From positions 33,495 to 97,494 of the forward strand of contig CAYHEM010000005.1 in the NCBI GenBank assembly GCA_964355765.1: 64,000 nucleotides of DNA, given 5' to 3'. Source of the DNA: an uncultured Gallionella sp. (GTDB taxonomy: Bacteria > Pseudomonadota > Gammaproteobacteria > Burkholderiales > Gallionellaceae). Positions 11,347 through 38,059 of the stretch are shown here, piece by piece. The notes beneath the pieces were generated by a model. That model was given only the letters and a program-made list of their open reading frames with translations, had not been told where the DNA came from and ran no database searches. Every line of letters begins with the position of its first letter. The first letter of the stretch is position 1. Made by a program: the position numbers and the translations under genes.

Positions 11347-13314
11347 ATGTCCGACATCCAATCCGTGTTGCATGAAACCCGAGTATTTAACCCATCCGAA
11401 GACTTTGTCAGACAGGCCAATGTCTCCGGCATGGAAAGTTATCAGGCCATGTGCAAGGCAGCGGAGCAGGACTATGCAGGTTACTGGGCCAAGCTGGCGC
11501 GCGAAACCCTGCTGTGGAAAAAACCGTTTACCAAAACACTGGACGAGAGCAATGCGCCGTTTTTCAAGTGGTTTGAGGACGGCGAGTTGAATGTTTCGCA
11601 TAACTGTCTCGACAAGCATCTTGTCAGCCAGCCGGAAAAAATCGCGATCATTTTCGAAGCCGACGACGGCACGGTGACGAAAATCAATTACCGCGATCTT
11701 CATGCACGCGTCTGCCAGTTTGCCAACGGCCTGAAATCGCGCGGCATCAAAAAAGGCGAGCGCGTCATCATCTACATGCCGATGAGCATCGAGGCGGTCG
11801 TCGCGATGCAGGCCTGCGCGCGCATCGGCGCGATCCATTCGGTGGTATTCGCCGGATTTTCCTCCAGAAGCTTGCATGAGCGCATCACCGATGCCCAGGC
11901 GTGCGCGGTGATTACCGCCGACGCGCAAATGCGCGGCGGCAAGCTGATGCCGCTGAAACCTGCAGTGGACGAAGCATTGACGCTAGGTGGCTGCGACAAA
12001 GTACACAGTGTCGTCGTGTATCGGCGCGCCGCCTGCGAAACCGCGTGGAACACAGCGCATGATGTTTGGTGGCATGATCTGGTGGCGGGACAAAGCGCCA
12101 TCTGCGAACCGGAATGGGTCAGTGCGGAACATCCGCTGTTCATACTCTATACCTCCGGTTCCACCGGCAAACCCAAGGGTGTGCAACATTCCAGCGGCGG
12201 CTATCTGCTGTTGGCGATGCTGTCGATGCAATGGGTGTTCGATTACAAACCGGCCGATATTTTCTGGTGCACCGCAGATGTGGGCTGGGTCACCGGCCAC
12301 AGCTATGTCACCTACGGCCCGCTGGCAATGGGCGCGACGCAGGTGGTATTCGAGGGTGTGCCAACCTGGCCCGATGCAGGTCGCTTCTGGAAGATGATTC
12401 AGGATCATCGGGTGACGATCTTCTATACCGCACCAACCGCGATCCGCTCCCTCATCAAGCTGGGGGGCGACTTGCCGGGAAAATACGATTTGTCCAGCCT
12501 GCGCCTGCTCGGCTCGGTCGGCGAACCGATCAACCCGGAAGCCTGGATGTGGTATTACACCGAAGTCGGCCGCTCGCGCTGCCCGATTGTGGATACCTGG
12601 TGGCAAACCGAAACCGGCGCGCACATGATTGCACCGCTGCCCGGTGCGATGCCGATCAAGCCCGGCACCTGCACGCTGCCCCTGCCCGGCATCATGGCTA
12701 CCATCGTCGATGAAACCGGGGAAGAATTGCATGGTCCGAATGGCGGTTTTCTCGTCATCAAGCGCCCGTTTCCGTCACAAATCCGCACCATCTGGGGCGA
12801 CCCGGAGCGCTATAAAAAAAGTTATTTTCCGGAAGAAATGCGCGGCTATTACCTTGCAGGTGATTCCGCGCACCGCGATGAAGACGGGTATTTCTGGATC
12901 ATGGGGCGCATCGATGATGTGCTGAATGTTTCCGGCCACCGTCTCGGGACGATGGAAATTGAATCGGCGCTGGCTGCCAATCCGCTGGTCGCCGAGGCAG
13001 CCGTGGTCGGCAAGCCGCATGACATCAAGGGGGAAGCGATCGTGGCCTTTGTCGTGTTGAAAAGCGCACGTCCGGACAATCCGGTCAAAGCCAAAGAAAT
13101 AGCCGCAAGCCTGCGCGCCTGGGTGGGAAAGGAAATCGGCTCGATTGCCAAACCCGATGAAATTCGCTTTGGCGATAATCTGCCCAAGACGCGCTCCGGC
13201 AAAATCATGCGCCGCCTGCTGCGCGCCATCGCCAGAGGAGAAGATATTACCCAAGACGTTTCGACACTGGAAAACCCAGCCATTCTCGAACAGTTGAAAA
13301 ACGCTGTGCGCTAA
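11347..13314 (+). CDS. acs: Acetyl-CoA synthetase
   Basis: 655 aa with AMP-binding signature [11 protein letters not shown]. Full-length typical Acs N- and C-termini. Confidence 0.97.
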
Positions 13315-13692
13315 TTGGCCGGGTTTGGTTACGACATAACCCGCCAACGGGTTAGTCTCCACCGCAACAAGCCTCTGCGAGGCGTGTTGTCGGCGCAGGC
13401 TAACATCGCTTGCGATGTTAAGGTGCGCAGCACCGGCCGTAGCCAAAACCCAGCCATTCTCGAACAGTTGAAAAACGCTGTGCGCTAATTGGCCGGGTTT
13501 GGTTACGACATAACCCGCCAACGGGTTAGTCTCCACCGCAACAAGCCTCTGCGAGGCGTGTTGTCGGCGCAGGCTAACATCGCTTGCGATGTTAAGGTGC
13601 GCAGCACCGGCCGTAGCCAAAACCCAGCCATTCTCGAACAGTTGAAAAACGCAGTGCGTTAATTGGCTGGGTTTGGTTACAACATAACCCGC
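13271..13692. repeat. 174-bp tandem repeat: 2 identical units plus a 74-nt diverged partial unit
   Basis: Units start at 13271, 13445 and 13619. Units 1 and 2 are identical by eye. Unit 3 has 4 mismatches over 74 nt and then runs into unique sequence. Each unit starts with the last 44 nt of acs including the stop codon. Confidence 0.95.
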
Positions 13693-14282
13693 TGCTCATT
13701 GTTCCCAGGATTTTCATCAGCCCAATTATTGAGGTATTTCTCCAGCCAGAACAGCCCGACGATGGTTTTGCTGTCGTTGATCTTGCCAGAGCGTATCCAC
13801 GCTATCGCCTCCTGCAGGGGCAATTCGAATACTTCCAGAAATTCACCATCGTCCAGATTGCGCCCTTGTCGCGTCAGGCCGCGCGCCAAGAAATATGCTA
13901 TGCGTTCGTCGGCGTAACCGATGCAAGGCCAGGCAGTGGTAAGGTGCTGCCACTCGCCTGCCGCATAACCGGTCTCTTCCAGCAACTCGCGTTGCGCGGT
14001 AAGCAGAATATCCTCTCCATGATCAATTTTTCCGGCGGGCAGTTCGATGAATTCGCGTTGCGGCGCGTAGCGAAATTGGCGCTCCAGCACCAGATTGCCG
14101 TTGTCCAGCATCGCCAGCACTGCCACCGCGCCGGGGTGGGTGATGTATTCGCGGCTGCCTGTCGCGCCATTCGGCAAAAGCACACTATCCTTGCGCACCT
14201 GCATGAAACTTCCTTCATACACCAATGCCGTATCCAGACGCTTTTCTTCCAGATCCACTATCACTCCTTGCTTCCGGGCCAA
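13677..14282 (-). CDS. Nudix hydrolase, ADP-ribose pyrophosphatase-like
   Basis: Nudix box GKIDHGEDILLTAQRELLEETG, 201 aa. The 3' end lies inside the third (partial) repeat unit. Confidence 0.8.
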   Translation of the reverse strand: MARKQGVIVDLEEKRLDTALVYEGSFMQVRKDSVLLPNGATGSREYITHPGAVAVLAMLDNGNLVLERQFRYAPQREFIELPAGKIDHGEDILLTAQRELLEETGYAAGEWQHLTTAWPCIGYADERIAYFLARGLTRQGRNLDDGEFLEVFELPLQEAIAWIRSGKINDSKTIVGLFWLEKYLNNWADENPGNNEQRVML

Positions 14283-14294
14283 AGCAGCTTCCGC

Positions 14295-16259
14295 TCAGCA
14301 AGCTCCGGGTTTTTCGAACTTCCAGTCAACAGCGCCTTCATCGTCCGAAAAAAAACGCGACGTGCGGCTATCCGTCTTCTGTATGGATATCCTGATATCG
14401 TTGTCCGTCATGTCCCTGAAAAAATTCAACCCACTTTCAACCTTCATTGTTTGTCCAGTGGTTTGACCGGCAACCTTATCTATCACACAAGCAATATTTT
14501 CCCCCATCCCGTCGCGGTCATGCATGACGGTAGAAAGCTCCGCTGCGGAGGCCTTGATTGACTTATCCAGCTCACCGATTTCCTCTTCCAGCATCACCAC
14601 TTGACTAGCCGCTTTGGCATTTTTCGCAACCAGTTTTTGCCAGGCGCCGATCCGATCTTCCGCCAGCTTGATTGCGCCGCTTCTGATTTCTTCTGCCAGC
14701 GTAAAATATCTTGAGACGTCCCGGTCCGACTTTATCCGTTCGATCTGACGCATTCTGGTTCCGATATTCGCCTGAGCATTGACCATTTCCTTTTTAAGGT
14801 CAGCGACACGCTGGTCAACGCCGGAAAAATCCGGGATCAATAGCGTCACCAGTGTCTCCCTGCCTTTGCGCTCATCAGAAGAAATAACCTTGATTCTCTC
14901 CGCCACAACCCTGCATCCCTCAACCTTGTCGGCGAACACTTCTTCACCAATGATTTCGCAATTCACCGCATATTCGATGCGAACAGTCTTGCCGATAATC
15001 ATGCTGCTCTCGCAAAACCTGACCGTCACTTCGCCGTCATAAGCGAGAATTACCGCGCGCGAAGCGTTCTTGTCCAATGTGACATTTCCGCCCGTTGCTT
15101 CCGCGCGACCGCCGGATAGATTGCCCCTGACGCAAATGTTACCATCCTGCGAAATCACGCTACCGAACACATTGGAAAGGAAAGTCATGTGCTTTCCCCT
15201 GACTACACGACCTTCCTGTACCTCGCCATGCTCGATAAATTCGTCTACCCCCAAAATCAGATCGCCCGTCGTCCTGGCACTAACACCTTCTTTAGTTTCA
15301 ATTTTTTTGGTAATTGACACTTTATTTGAATGGCTGTCCAGTGACAGGAACCCATCCAGTGCCGCCACAATATATTCGCCATCCGGTTCCTGCTCGATGC
15401 ACGTCCCGAATGAAGCAAGCGCATGCAAATCCAGATCCTTTGGCATTCTCGGTTCGATGACGTCACCGGTCACCTTGCGTCCCTGCTTGCCCAGCTTGCG
15501 CGCAAGCTTCTTGAGCATGCGCTCCCCTTTGACCATTTGCGGAAAGCGGTTCTCAAAAACACGCAAGTCGACCCTGCCGTTCGCCAGCATTCTGGGGGAA
15601 TTATCCCGATGCAAATGCTTGGAGACCTCCCTGATCTCGGCGTCGCTGCCTTCGGTGGGATCAAGACACCGTGCAATCGTCACGCGTGCCGGTGTACTGC
15701 TGGCAATGGCCTGCTGCACGGCATTTGCATCGATGCCGAACTTCACACCCTTCATCCACATATCGGCGATAAACTCGTCAAAATTCAACTTGGCCGGCTG
15801 CAACTCGATCTTGTTCTCATACCCGACGATGCTGGCAGTACCACTTTCGTCCGGCTCGCCATAAATCGGCTGCTCACTGCTTACTTCGATACTGACCGGC
15901 TCAAAAACATACTCGGCGCATTTTCCGCCTTCAAGCATCTTGACTGCCCTGTAGAGCGCGCGGCGCTCTGGCAAAAACCCGACAATTTCCGCCGCCAGTT
16001 TCACTTCCGTGCACTGGTCTTGTATCTCTGCCAGCCAATCGGCGTCATAAAGAAGCTTGAGAAAGACGCCATAATCCAGGCCCGAAAACAGCGCCTCTCC
16101 GGTGAACAGGCGCTCGACAAACTGCTCGAAGCCGCCTGCCGTCCGCAAGACCGGCAAGTCTATAAACACACCTTCGGGCCGCCTGGAGACAAAACCGGGA
16201 ATGATCAGGCCATTGAGGTCAGCATTCGCTAAACCAGGCAAGGCCATGCCTATATCCAC
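14295..16259 (-). CDS. FapA/DUF342-like protein (beta-helix plus coiled coil)
   Basis: 654 aa. The central region has short repetitive beta-strand-like segments (GNICVRGNLSGGRAEATGGNVTLD...VTVRFCE...VRIEYAV...), followed by a long coiled-coil-like segment. Assigned by overall pattern, not by a sharp motif. Confidence 0.5.
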   Translation of the reverse strand: MDIGMALPGLANADLNGLIIPGFVSRRPEGVFIDLPVLRTAGGFEQFVERLFTGEALFSGLDYGVFLKLLYDADWLAEIQDQCTEVKLAAEIVGFLPERRALYRAVKMLEGGKCAEYVFEPVSIEVSSEQPIYGEPDESGTASIVGYENKIELQPAKLNFDEFIADMWMKGVKFGIDANAVQQAIASSTPARVTIARCLDPTEGSDAEIREVSKHLHRDNSPRMLANGRVDLRVFENRFPQMVKGERMLKKLARKLGKQGRKVTGDVIEPRMPKDLDLHALASFGTCIEQEPDGEYIVAALDGFLSLDSHSNKVSITKKIETKEGVSARTTGDLILGVDEFIEHGEVQEGRVVRGKHMTFLSNVFGSVISQDGNICVRGNLSGGRAEATGGNVTLDKNASRAVILAYDGEVTVRFCESSMIIGKTVRIEYAVNCEIIGEEVFADKVEGCRVVAERIKVISSDERKGRETLVTLLIPDFSGVDQRVADLKKEMVNAQANIGTRMRQIERIKSDRDVSRYFTLAEEIRSGAIKLAEDRIGAWQKLVAKNAKAASQVVMLEEEIGELDKSIKASAAELSTVMHDRDGMGENIACVIDKVAGQTTGQTMKVESGLNFFRDMTDNDIRISIQKTDSRTSRFFSDDEGAVDWKFEKPGAC

Positions 16260-16331
16260 CCTGTCGGTTCACTACTGCCCATAGTGCGTTGCGAAACGAT
16301 TGCGTTCACCACCATTTCTCCCCAGTTCCCT

Positions 16332-17531
16332 TTAAAGACTTTCAAATATGCCCGCCGCACCCATTCCCGTTCCGATGCACATGGTCACCATGCCGTATTT
16401 CTGCTTGCGGCTGCGCAGACCGTGCAGCAGGGTCGCGGTGCGGATCGCGCCGGTTGCGCCGAGCGGGTGGCCGAGGGCAATCGCGCCGCCGAGCGGATTC
16501 ACCTTTGCCGGATCGAGGCCGACATCGCTAATCACAGCCAGCGTCTGCGCGGCGAAGGCTTCGTTCAGTTCGATCCAGTCCATATCGTCGAGCCGCAAAC
16601 CGACCTGCTGCAACACGCGTGGAATAGCTTCTTTCGGGCCGATACCCATGATTTCCGGCGGCACGCCCGCAACGCTGAAACCCAGAAACTTGCCGATGGG
16701 CTCAAGGTTATAACGCTTCAGCGCCGCCCCGCTGCACAGCAGCACCGCGCCTGCGCCGTCCGACATTTGTGAACTATTGCCTGCCGTAACCGAACCATTT
16801 TGCGCGAACACCGGCCTGAGTCCGGCCAGCGCATCAAGCGAGGTATCGGCACGCGGGCCTTCATCCTGTGCTGCCTCGCGCATCTTCAAACTGGCCGCGC
16901 GTGTCTGCATATCCGGCTGATGCTCGGCAATTTGATACGGCGTAATCTCATTCCTGAAGTCGCCATTCGCTATCGCCGCAATGGCACGCTGATGACTTTG
17001 CAGCGCAAAAGCATCCTGCGCCTCGCGCGACACATGCCATTTCTTAGCCACCTTCTCCGCCGTCAGCCCCATTCCATAGGCGATGGCGACATGGTCGTCG
17101 CCCGCGAATATCTGCGGATTGAATGCCACCTTGTTGCCCATCATCGGAATCATGCTCATGCTTTCCACACCTGCCGCGATCATCACCTCTGCCTCACCAA
17201 GCCGGATGCGATCCGCCGCATTCGCCACTGCCTGCAAACCGGACGAGCAAAAACGGTTTACCGTTACCCCCGGAACGCCATGCGGCAGCCCTGCCAGCAA
17301 CAACGCGATGCGCGCGACGTTCATGCCCTGCTCCGCCTCCGGCATCGCACAGCCGACGATGACATCACCGATCGCCGCCGGGTCAAGTGCCGGTGCTTGC
17401 GCCAGCACGCTCTTTAATACATGCACCAGCAGATCGTCGGGGCGCGTGTTGCGGAACATCCCGCGCGGCGCTTTGCCGACCGGCGTACGTGTCGCGGCAA
17501 CAATGTAGGCTTCCTGAATTTGTTTGGTCAT
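16332..17531 (-). CDS. Acetyl-CoA C-acyltransferase (thiolase)
   Basis: Active-site region NRFCSSGLQA and C-terminal CIGTGMGAA, 399 aa. Confidence 0.95.
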   Translation of the reverse strand: MTKQIQEAYIVAATRTPVGKAPRGMFRNTRPDDLLVHVLKSVLAQAPALDPAAIGDVIVGCAMPEAEQGMNVARIALLLAGLPHGVPGVTVNRFCSSGLQAVANAADRIRLGEAEVMIAAGVESMSMIPMMGNKVAFNPQIFAGDDHVAIAYGMGLTAEKVAKKWHVSREAQDAFALQSHQRAIAAIANGDFRNEITPYQIAEHQPDMQTRAASLKMREAAQDEGPRADTSLDALAGLRPVFAQNGSVTAGNSSQMSDGAGAVLLCSGAALKRYNLEPIGKFLGFSVAGVPPEIMGIGPKEAIPRVLQQVGLRLDDMDWIELNEAFAAQTLAVISDVGLDPAKVNPLGGAIALGHPLGATGAIRTATLLHGLRSRKQKYGMVTMCIGTGMGAAGIFESL

Positions 17532-17560
17532 GATGCTCTCCGCTCAGGCTCTGATCCCGC

Positions 17561-17722
17561 GACTATACATAGCGGTGGAAATCGTAGCGAGCGATTTTGC
17601 AGCGGAGAGAGACCAGAAAGCGGGAACCTGAGGATTCGGGGCGGGGCACGAGTCCGCTGCGGAATCCCGCGGCGAATCTATGTCGCTATGTGCAATCGAC
17701 AACCGCGCTGCCACATTATTTT
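17561..17722. repeat. Imperfect palindromic intergenic element with CGCTATGTATA-type ends
   Basis: The left end GACTATACATAGCGG and right end GTCGCTATGTGCAATCGAC are inverted relative to each other. GATTTTGCAGCGGA and TCCGCTGCGGAATC are an inner inverted pair. The right end is similar to 53278..53325. Confidence 0.35.
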
Positions 17723-18046
17723 TCCACCTGAGACACGTCCCGCACCGCACCCTTGTCGGCCGAAGTCACCATAAGGCGTTGGCCTGCGAACGGCGGAGCA
17801 GTGGCTCCACGCAAGTGGAGATGCGACCCGGCAGCAGTGCCCGCTGCCATCATATTCCTTCAAGCTGCGACACGTCCCGCACCGCGCCCTTGTCGGCCGA
17901 AGTCACCACAAGGCGTTGGCCTGCGAACGGCGGAGCAGTGGCTCCACGCAAGTGGAGATGCGACCCGGCAGCAGTGCCCGCTGCCATCATATTCCTTCAA
18001 GCTGCGACACGTCCCGCACCGCGCCCTTGTCGGCCGAAGTCACCAT
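17709..18046. repeat. 137-bp tandem repeat: 2 near-identical units plus a diverged ~63-nt partial unit
   Basis: GACACGTCCC recurs at 17732, 17869 and 18006 (period 137). Each unit contains the last ~57 nt of ilvD (minus strand) including the stop codon. Confidence 0.9.
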
Positions 18047-19840
18047 AGCAGCGTAGGCACGCAATGCGACCGATACCTTGCGCTGACGGTCTGTCGCGGG
18101 CTTCCATGCCTGCCTGCCCCTGGCCTGCATCGCGACGCGGCGGCGCACCAATTCCTCATCGGAAATCGCCAAATTGATACTGCGCTCCGGGATGTCGATC
18201 TCGATGGTGTCACCCTCCTCCACCAGCCCGATCGCGCCACACTGCGCAGCCTCCGGCGAAACATGGCCGATACTTAAACCCGAAGTGCCGCCGGAAAAAC
18301 GCCCGTCGGTAAGCAATGCGCATGCCTTGCCCAGACCTCTGGATTTCAGGTATGAAGTCGGATACAGCATCTCCTGCATGCCCGGCCCGCCCTTGGGTCC
18401 TTCATAGCGGATCACCACCACATCGCCCGCCACAATCTGATCGGCGAGGATGGCAGCCACTGCATCGTCCTGGCTTTCGAACACGCGCGCGCGTCCGGTG
18501 AATTTCAGGATACTTTCATCCACTCCGGCGGTTTTGACAATGCAGCCATCCGGTGCGATGTTGCCGTGCAACACCGCCAGCCCGCCGTCCTGACTGTGCG
18601 CATGCGCCTTGTCGCGGATACAACCGTTGGCACGATCTGCATCCAGCTCCGGATAATGCATGGATTGCGAGAAGGCAAGGGTGGTGACAATCCCGCCAGG
18701 CGCGGCGCGGAAAAATTTTTTCACGGCTTCATCCTGTGTCTGCACGATGTCCCACTGCTGCAAACCCTCGCGCAATGTCGCGCTGTGTATCGTCCCGGCG
18801 CCGGCATGCAACAGGCCGGCCCGGTCCAGTTCCCCCAGAATCGCGGGTATCCCGCCGGCACGATGCACGTCTTCCATGTGATATTCGGAGGAAGGTGCGA
18901 CCTTGCACAGCGTCGGCACATGGCGCGACAGGCGATCCATATCCTTCATGGTGAAGTTCACTTGCGCTTCCTGCGCAATCGCCAGCAGATGCAACACGGT
19001 ATTGGTCGAGCCGCCCATCGAGATATCCAGCGTCATGGCATTTTCGAATGCGTCGAACGTGGCGATGGAACGCGGCAACACACTCGCGTCGTCCTGTTCG
19101 TAGTAGCGTTTGCACAATTCGACGATGACGCGCCCGGCGCGCAAAAACAACTGCTTGCGCTCGGCATGCGTCGCCACCAGCGAACCGTTGCCGGGCAGCG
19201 CCAGTCCCAGCGCCTCGGCCAGGCAATTCATCGAATTGGCGGTAAACATGCCGGAACAGGAACCGCAGGTCGGGCAGGCGGAACGCTCGATGGCTTCACA
19301 TTCCGCCGCACTGACTTTGTCGTCCGCCGCTGCCACCATCGCATCCACCAGGTCCAGGCCCCGGGTCTGACCCTGCCAGTTGACCTTACCCGCCTCCATC
19401 GGCCCGCCCGAGACGAAAACCACCGGGATATTCAGGCGCATCGCCGCCATCAGCATCCCCGGTGTAATCTTGTCGCAATTTGAAATGCACACCAGCGCAT
19501 CGGCGCAATGCGCATTGACCATGTACTCCACACTGTCTGCGATCAGGTCGCGGCTCGGCAACGAATACAACATGCCGTCATGCCCCATCGCAATGCCGTC
19601 GTCGATGGCGATGGTGTTGAACTCCTTGGCGATGCCGCCCGCCTTCTCGATCTCGCGCGCCACCAGCTGCCCCATATCCTTGAGGTGGACATGGCCGGGC
19701 ACAAACTGGGTGAACGAATTGGCGATGGCGATAATGGGCTTGCCAAAATCGCCTTCCGTCATGCCGGTGGCGCGCCACAAGGCGCGCGCGCCGGCCATGT
19801 TGCGGCCATGGGTGGAAGTGCGGGAACGGTAAGCGGGCAT
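17987..19840 (-). CDS. ilvD: Dihydroxy-acid dehydratase
   Basis: 617 aa with IlvD/Edd signature [12 protein letters not shown]. Full-length. Confidence 0.97.
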
Positions 19841-23659: not shown

Positions 23660-23782
23660 ATGAGCCTCCTGGAATTAATGCAAACTGTCCCTGCTACCTT
23701 CATCGGCGCGTACCTGATCATCGGCCTGATGGTCGGCAGCTTTAGCTCCGACATAACCCGCCGGCGGGTTAGTCTTCACTGA
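23660..23782 (+). pseudogene. Displaced 5' fragment of a prepilin peptidase gene (28 codons), fused to a hairpin element
   Basis: MSLLELMQTVPATFIGAYLIIGLMVGSF aligns with the pilD N-terminus MSDLFQLLQSSPLAFTSACAVLGLMVGSF. Homology stops at 23743, where the hairpin motif begins. Confidence 0.6.
23749..23779. repeat. 31-nt hairpin motif CGACATAACCCGCCGGCGGGTTAGTCTTCAC
   Basis: Perfect 18-nt palindrome TAACCCGCCGGCGGGTTA (23755-23772). 28/31 identical to 13332-13362 and 13506-13536 in the acs tandem repeat. Confidence 0.85.
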
Positions 23783-23792
23783 AACCACCGAC

Positions 23793-36409: not shown

Positions 36410-38059
<1,650 letters not shown>

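Follow-up and report, generated by a model that had tools for sequence, protein, structure and literature searches.

The 3' end of ilvD in this genome is followed by two further copies of itself. This raises the question of whether these copies are real, which of them is the older, and whether the copies or the spacer between them carry the meaning of the structure. The DNA analysed, here called the window, is a stretch of 64,000 nucleotides from contig C5 of a 2.34-Mb, 30-contig metagenome-assembled genome of freshwater or groundwater origin. As described below, the array is a real, inherited repeat of variable copy number and not a switch between gene versions. The original prediction missed the main point: the spacer is the conserved and selected part, and the structure is old, vertically inherited and present in six lineages.

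Both Pfam domains of the ilvD product were recognized (ILVD_EDD_N, 7.7e-133; ILV_EDD_C, 5e-75), and the C-terminal domain reaches residue 607 of 617. The gene end (A) and the spacer (B) alternate in the order A1-B1-A2-B2-A3, where A3 is also called A* (Table 1). TRF reported positions 17706-18045 with a period of 137, 2.5 copies and 95% matches, and the repeat search agreed, which confirmed the tandem array duplicating the ilvD 3' end. The units lie head to tail, and units 1 and 2 differ at one base. The change of the first codon in the second copy from ATG to GTG, and the synonymous changes of the third copy (GGC>GGT and TCG>TCT relative to A1) followed by another tail, had also been read correctly. 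The spacer, previously given as 74 nt, measures 77 nt. The hairpins described in it, GGAGC-AGTG-GCTCC and GGCAGC-AGTGCCC-GCTGCC, are present. The 57-nt core contains two overlapping palindromes, CTCCAC-TTGC-GTGGAG and GGAGC-CACT-GCTCC, and the palindrome CTCCACTTGCGTGGAG is present in B. The short segment TGTGGCAGCGCGG behind the distal stop is a homologue of the beginning of B and of what follows the distal copy in the metagenome lineages L056 and L057, so that the repeated segment extends about 12 nt beyond the stop.

Table 1. Features of the ilvD array and its surroundings, in window positions.
Feature	Position	Strand	Source
ilvD CDS (dihydroxy-acid dehydratase), 617 aa	17987..19840	minus	ORF list; Pfam
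A1, last 19 codons and stop of ilvD, 60 nt, copy in use, tail QLEGI*	17987..18046	minus	
B1, 77-nt spacer: 20-nt variable hairpin (TGGCAGCGGGCACTGCTGCC) and 57-nt conserved core	17910..17986	minus	
57-nt core of B1 (GGGTCGCATCTCCACTTGCGTGGAGCCACTGCTCCGCCGTTCGCAGGCCAACGCCTT)	17910..17966	minus	column conservation
A2, second gene-end copy; single difference from A1 at the first base (GTG vs ATG)	17850..17909	minus	
B2, second spacer, same sequence as B1	17773..17849	minus	
A3 (A*), distal copy, tail SQVEK*, older end common to sister lineages	17716..17772	minus	
TGTGGCAGCGCGG, 3' of the distal stop	17703..17715	minus	sequence comparison
Distal flank up to the thiolase start	17532..17702	minus	
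Thiolase gene downstream of the array	16332..17531	minus	Pfam Thiolase_N, Thiolase_C

The thiolase gene occupies the place of the mutarotase gene, which is the usual follower of ilvD in most of the genus, as judged from the neighbourhoods of relatives. The last ~50 nt of the distal flank are homologous to the entire ilvD-thiolase spacer of G018, the sister of this genome. It should be mentioned that this flank also contains a short dispersed repeat at ~17560-17605, found on contig C16 and in several relatives, and that a related population (X11) is without 159 nt of window positions 17547-17707 and has 51 other letters instead. The acs and ilvD genes are convergent and 4 kb apart (window 13300-17720), with a Nudix gene, a FapA-like protein gene and the thiolase gene between them. 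This acs-ilvD arrangement occurs only in this genome and G018, and the ilvD-thiolase junction also in two metagenome lineages.

The reality of the array was assessed with Logan k=31 unitigs from two probable source samples, X1 and X2, and from an independent study, X4. The flanking unitigs have depths of 46-47.5 in X1 and 14.2-14.3 in X2. The 136-nt unitig common to the units has depths of 74.9 and 24, respectively, or 1.6-1.7 times the flank, and a separate 61-nt unitig has depths of 34.5 and 11.8, or 0.75-0.83 times the flank. The latter is centred on the G at position 17909 and carries the B-to-(G)A junction together with the A-type base 24 nt further. This means that a B-to-A junction distinct from the B-to-A* junction exists in the DNA. 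We infer that two units are present in roughly three quarters or more of the source genomes, the exact number per cell being an estimate. The shortfall from the expected values of 2.0 and 1.0 may be caused by heterogeneity or by the counting of depth on short unitigs. X4 contains a 167-nt cycle unitig (137+30), and related variants occur in other populations. The closed genome of Ca. Ferrigenium straubiae KS has a one-unit A-B-A form, from which the runs of its culture show zero differences. Among assembled RNA contigs, one spans the B-to-A junction and another stops 3 nt past the stop.

A metagenome assembler might have written strain variants or a collapsed bubble in tandem. The fragmentation of the genome into 30 contigs, the presence of about a dozen high-identity arrays of 2-3 units in it, and a unit depth lower than twice that of the flank would be in keeping with such an error. 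However, the junction k-mers B-to-(G)A and B-to-(A)A* both occur in independent runs and studies, and the same architecture is found in a closed genome and in five other lineages. The probability of an assembly artefact is negligible, and this explanation was rejected on the basis of the junction unitigs, the independent studies and the closed genome. Collapse of the array to one unit in the reads, which had been considered earlier, was not borne out: the unitigs of X1, X2 and X4 support at least two units.

The spacer was then compared across genomes. The genome-wide search proposed with the original prediction found no copy of B in this genome outside the ilvD array. Besides this genome, B occurs in three members of a collection of 185,579 species genomes, as two spacers in G056 and as a single one in G045 and in G064, and also on two metagenome contigs (L056 and L057); in every case it lies at ilvD. 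A dispersed mobile repeat was rejected, since the genome, the genus, the species collection and the metagenomes hold no copy outside ilvD. Across the six lineages, the 57-nt core of B shows 0-4 differences. The third-codon positions of ilvD are 65-78% identical within the thiolase clade, the final ilvD windows ahead of the repeat have 67-83% identity, and the adjacent coding A copies vary at third positions among the six lineages. A core that is nearly invariant where the third positions of the neighbouring gene are not points to B as a selected, non-coding, locus-bound element. Purifying selection is the simplest reading of this pattern, and B would accordingly be functional.

The history of the array was examined on a maximum-likelihood tree of ilvD that included the six B-bearing lineages, seven B-less species, and G018 and G014. 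The six B-bearing lineages, all Gallionella or Ferrigenium, fall in one clade, and the seven B-less species lie apart with 100% bootstrap. The B-less G018 and G014 are nested inside the B clade. The identity of B to that of this genome is 99, 97, 95, 93 and 90%, and the corresponding identity of ilvD is about 86-88, 83, 84, 82 and 81%. This parallel decrease is expected of vertical descent with a slow clock. The pattern fits one ancient origin, vertical descent and two secondary losses. Losses should be easy, because B is flanked by direct repeats. As the tree was built from ilvD itself, co-transfer of ilvD and B would look alike; a recent horizontal tract in the ilvD body was rejected, as no jump in identity was seen. 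The short spacer of G018 (48 nt) is homologous to the thiolase-proximal flank and not to B, and was thus rejected as a relic of B.

The number of spacers is 0 in G018 and G014, 1 in G045, G064, L056 and L057, and 2 in this genome (G000) and G056. Unit number therefore varies among eight lineages, and the A copies are homogenised within genomes, which is the pattern of concerted evolution. Over their first ~45 nt, the A copies of any one genome have lineage-specific substitutions in common, which suggests gene conversion. In L057, a decayed second spacer and the first 8 nt of a third A (0 of 2000 shuffles) directly adjoin the upstream region of the thiolase gene. This relic indicates that arrays with two or more units have existed for a long time and decay starting at their distal end. 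In this genome, the single-base difference between units 1 and 2 suggests that the first unit was duplicated very recently, after its tail had become LEGI*.

Which copy is older was judged from the gene-end tails. The ilvD genes of relatives end in QIE*, QIER*, QIEPH*, QVEK*, QLEK* or QVEN*, and QVEK-type tails are seen in G010 (AQVEK*) and in G045 and G064 (TQVEK*). The LEGI* tail is confined to this genome and was found in no other. In L056 and L057, which have the same thiolase downstream, the distal copy ends in SQVEK* and is followed by TGTGGCAGCGC... The SQVEK* tail of A3 and the sequence TGTGGCAGCG behind its stop match these distal copies. As both A3 and its 13 following nucleotides match, the distal copy keeps the older end of the clade, and LEGI* is the derived one. 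The proposed comparison of tails thus gave a polarity, QVEK-type being older and widespread, and an SQVEK end was indeed found among relatives, in the distal copies of L056 and L057.

It had been proposed that the distal copy is an alternative allele of the ilvD terminus rather than a random duplication. Its status as an older allele stands, on the tail and post-stop matches and on the mostly synonymous changes (12, against 5 non-synonymous) that separate proximal from distal copies in four species. A role as an alternative in use does not. An inversion or recombinase system is lacking, and the distal tails differ between lineages. Furthermore, the distal copy in X4 carries a Ser-to-Pro change in the invariant SADKG motif, and the middle copy of G056 is frameshifted. 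No evidence was found for allele switching or for translation of the distal copies. The 12:5 bias is expected if a selected first copy keeps overwriting the others. This bias could also mean that the displaced copies still served as functional gene ends at a later time than a single ancient event would permit.

The structure, distribution, conservation pattern and copy-number variation described above are observed; the history that connects them is probably, although not securely, that of an old tandem repeat straddling the ilvD stop, which arose by ancestral fixation of B together with a spare gene end and has been kept by a selected core and recombining copies. In the ancestor of one Gallionella/Ferrigenium subclade, the 77-nt non-coding B would have been fixed directly behind ilvD with a second 19-codon end. 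Translation of ilvD would then stop in A1, and the earlier gene end would lie downstream, untranslated. The founding event might have been one-sided homologous plus illegitimate recombination, or unequal exchange, these being the most likely routes. At the founding junction, the end of B (...CAACGCCTT) would have been joined to the Met codon opening A. By either route, a foreign gene end with its downstream DNA would have met the resident gene end at ...CGCCTT|ATG. The 57-nt core appears to have since been held almost constant by purifying selection, which would mean that B does something as DNA or RNA. Gene conversion would keep the first ~45 nt of the A copies alike in each genome, and unequal crossing-over would add or remove units, giving 0, 1 or 2 spacers by lineage. 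In this genome, the tail of the first unit presumably changed to QLEGI* before that unit was duplicated, and the third copy kept the older QVEK*. Host recombination would do this work, and an element-encoded enzyme would not be needed.

The tails of the mutarotase-context genomes bear on the founding step. Proximally these genomes have QVEK-type tails; distally they have tails of the local QIE type, which overlap the start of the mutarotase gene. This is as expected of a single one-sided homologous plus illegitimate recombination; unequal or alternative-pairing exchange, as in PMC3784515, would give the same tail pattern. B is foreign to both the mutarotase and the thiolase contexts, so that plain duplication of native sequence fails to explain its origin. 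There is some similarity between the final ~28 nt of B and the ilvD codons that precede A, and between the first ~12-20 nt of B and the sequence 3' of the distal stop. These two resemblances weakly suggest a plain native duplication; as the former is not significant, B as a diverged ilvD fragment was rejected.

Known classes of element were considered for B. No Rfam family matched B at the gathering score or at E<=5, and ARAGORN found no tRNA or tmRNA in the array region. No promoter pattern was found for B, and no terminator-like site (GC-rich hairpin and T run) in 17400-18150. The predicted fold of B is no better than that of shuffles (z = 0.28). The pairing of B with the next A copy that RNAalifold put forward found no support from covariation: the covariation term was -0.11, and 156-208 of 500 shuffles reached the observed values; the test has low power, as B hardly varies. 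No encoded enzyme linked to B was found. A DGR was rejected, as no RT is adjacent, the RTs of the genome being limited to two group II intron proteins encoded on a different contig; moreover, the differences between A and A* (C>T, G>T and CTT>GTG) are not adenine-specific. REP/REPIN-RAYT membership was not supported: B is confined to the ilvD array, and repeat families other than B flank the three RAYT genes. The iterated nhmmer profile of the E family, described next, gave no match at the ilvD array, and B contains neither an E motif nor an inverted repeat of that kind.

E is a dispersed, genus-restricted hairpin element with the core GCAGRCTMAY-hairpin-RTKWAR-hairpin-GGCCGWARCC, followed by AMAA; both hairpins covary. 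Behind gene ends its layout is L, A, an inverted copy of the first 10-18 nt of A, E, and A again. The A flanking E measures 26-100 nt and begins at GG|AAAA. The array at acs (13271-13692, TRF), for which the same A-B-A-B-A* logic had been claimed, does exist and is an E-family locus; its spacer is unrelated to that of ilvD, as stated earlier, no motif being common to B and E. Further E loci in this genome are at serS (G000:C8:55449-55674), at an smpB-like gene (G000:C4:140700-140920), and at G000:C2:181397-181549 and G000:C5:143520-143650. The two 71-nt copies at serS do not differ from each other, and MLAR* has given way to a new tail, FIRVS*. Among relatives, E is present at L021 (acs of G018), L049 (argF of G015), L045, L046 and L048, where the flanking gene-end copies are different alleles of the same peptide. 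The argF copies differ by 11 synonymous to 1 non-synonymous changes over 21 codons, and the acs copies by 11 to 0 over 14 codons. One allele gives way to the other exactly at the E|AAAA boundary. In nine other species, the acs site is empty and lacks the inverted repeat. No enzyme gene lies beside the E copies, whose neighbours are metK, serS and similar genes. Comparison of these sequences suggests a cassette-like replacement of gene ends between lineages.

These loci show that gene-end replacement by small cassettes is ongoing in the genus, which counts against the old, vertically inherited repeat preferred here for ilvD. B might be a present or recent gene-less mobile or "homing" cassette that enters the ilvD 3' end and spreads by recombination, bringing a spare gene end (QVEK* tail and hairpin) so that ilvD survives. 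The architecture is that of the E loci, whose displaced copies are foreign alleles, and conservation rises sharply at the edges of B to a level far above that of its flanks. Every lineage has a QVEK-type proximal tail, while the mutarotase-context genomes keep the local QIE type distally, and the middle of the G045 distal copy has three thiolase-clade-like synonymous states, as a Campbell-type hybrid would have. Transformation can also yield tandem duplications via alternative pairing of repeats (PMC3784515). However, B is present at ilvD only and in one clade only, its divergence tracks that of the host, the ilvD body contains no recombinant tract, and B shares no motif with E and has no associated enzyme. 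A mobile or homing cassette of this kind is therefore considered unlikely. More doubtful still is the idea that B and E form one undescribed class of gene-less cassettes, which would sit in the last codons of essential genes and supply a spare gene end; the core would be a cis-site for host recombination or repair, the inverted repeat of E a target guide, and the ilvD cassette an old, domesticated and locus-bound member.

The downstream copies might themselves be functional, either as a reservoir for tail swaps (slow phase variation) or as translated small ORFs of 45-48 aa that start at the ATGA/TGATG overlap with the ilvD stop, end at the next A stop and couple to the next gene. The synonymous bias is in line with this, as are the ATG or GTG and the in-frame stop kept in every A copy, the ORF through B, which overlaps the ilvD stop and is open in each of the six lineages, and the distal stop that overlaps or abuts the mutarotase start in G056 and G045. 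However, B has no stop in any forward frame, so that an open frame is uninformative. G064 has a frameshift in the 5' part of B, and the changes in B are 4 non-synonymous to 2 synonymous; a small protein gene through B was rejected on these three grounds. The damaged copies of X4 and G056 and the distal tails, which differ freely among lineages, also speak against a function, and no variant joining ilvD directly to A* was seen in the reads. Function of the copies is thus quite improbable. The repeats might also be attL/attR-like scars of an integrative element that targeted the ilvD 3' end and brought a replacement gene end with it, nearly all of the element having later been deleted to leave 77 nt. 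The tandem units do resemble tandem accretion, and duplication of a gene end with displacement of the native end is the classic footprint of islands in gene 3' ends. Yet the 77 nt between the repeats hold no integrase or cargo, no other gene lies between or beside the repeats except the neighbours ilvD and thiolase, and a neutral scar should not exceed the rest of the region in conservation. A phage or plasmid att site was rejected, as the spacer matches no phage and plasmid matches cover the ilvD part only. Such a scar is highly improbable.

The old tandem repeat proposed here can be compared with several known systems. As in tandem duplications under concerted evolution, the units are head-to-tail, copy number differs among relatives, copies are homogenised, and host RecA-type recombination would suffice. 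In contrast to these, the ilvD unit is just 137 nt, straddles the stop and leaves the gene intact, and its non-coding core is more conserved than the gene. The array has persisted through speciation, whereas most bacterial duplications are unstable. In E. coli, the 178-bp tyrT repeats each begin with the 3' end of a tRNA gene. The ilvD array resembles such tRNA-linked repeats in its unit of upstream-gene 3' end and spacer, its partial terminal copy and its variable unit number, but it repeats protein-coding sequence with a stop, and its spacer core is conserved across species. Genomic islands and CIMEs integrate in gene 3' ends, and the homing-endonuclease "mobile ORFs" of fungal mitochondria duplicate the C-terminal ends of genes. 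There too, incoming DNA gives a replacement gene end and the native end is displaced downstream; unlike them, the ilvD insert is 77 nt, is found at one locus and has no integrase, endonuclease or ORF. REP, BIME and REPIN sequences with RAYT are likewise small, hairpin-bearing and intergenic near gene 3' ends, but B is single-copy per unit, locus-bound, without the GTAG-hairpin signature and unlike the REP families of the genome.

For the founding event, two processes have been described. Tandem duplication driven by transformation occurs by alternative pairing of repeats (Johnston et al. 2013, PMC3784515). Homology-facilitated illegitimate recombination (HFIR) in natural transformation or conjugation (PMC3240628) would yield gene-A'-foreign DNA-A, with one end anchored in ilvD homology and the other at the microhomology CTT|ATG. 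For ilvD, HFIR is a candidate mechanism. The products of HFIR are normally neutral insertions, whereas B is a conserved element.

Compared with concerted tandem duplications and tRNA-linked repeats, the ilvD array is new in that it spans the stop codon of a protein gene, has an ultra-conserved non-coding core and persists across species. A short tandem repeat across a stop codon can thus stay stable through speciation when it bears a selected non-coding element. "Coding-like" displaced gene ends can stay fresh by gene conversion while untranslated, and this can mislead both annotation and selection tests. As an orphan conserved element beside a core metabolic gene in iron-oxidising Gallionellaceae, the 57-nt core is a target for functional work. 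Together with the E-family loci, the ilvD array makes the genus suited to the study of gene-end replacement by small non-coding DNA.

Several other repeats of this genome should be mentioned. The three RAYT-type Y1 transposase genes are at G000:C13:43470-44228, G000:C17:25260-25721 and G000:C1:~128400-129140; each has its own REP family, arrayed in tandem or in inverted order on its flanks, and neither the E family nor the ilvD spacer is among these families. The two group II intron reverse transcriptase/HNH proteins are encoded about 10 kb apart at G000:C4:26326-26973 and 36537-37184. About a dozen more high-identity intergenic tandem arrays have periods of 55-174 nt and 2-3 units, the last unit being often partial and slightly diverged. 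Most of them begin 30 nt or less from a stop codon; they include G000:C10:10445-10790, C13:52125-52543, C13:65176-65520, C17:24971-25259, C22:30144-30509 and C5:19486-19647. At window positions 23660-23792, a diverged 28-codon fragment of the pilD 5' end and a second dispersed module (ccgacataacccgccggcgggttagtct), which is also part of the acs spacer, stand directly upstream of the intact pilD. This locus shows the displaced-end logic seen at ilvD, but at the 5' end of the gene.
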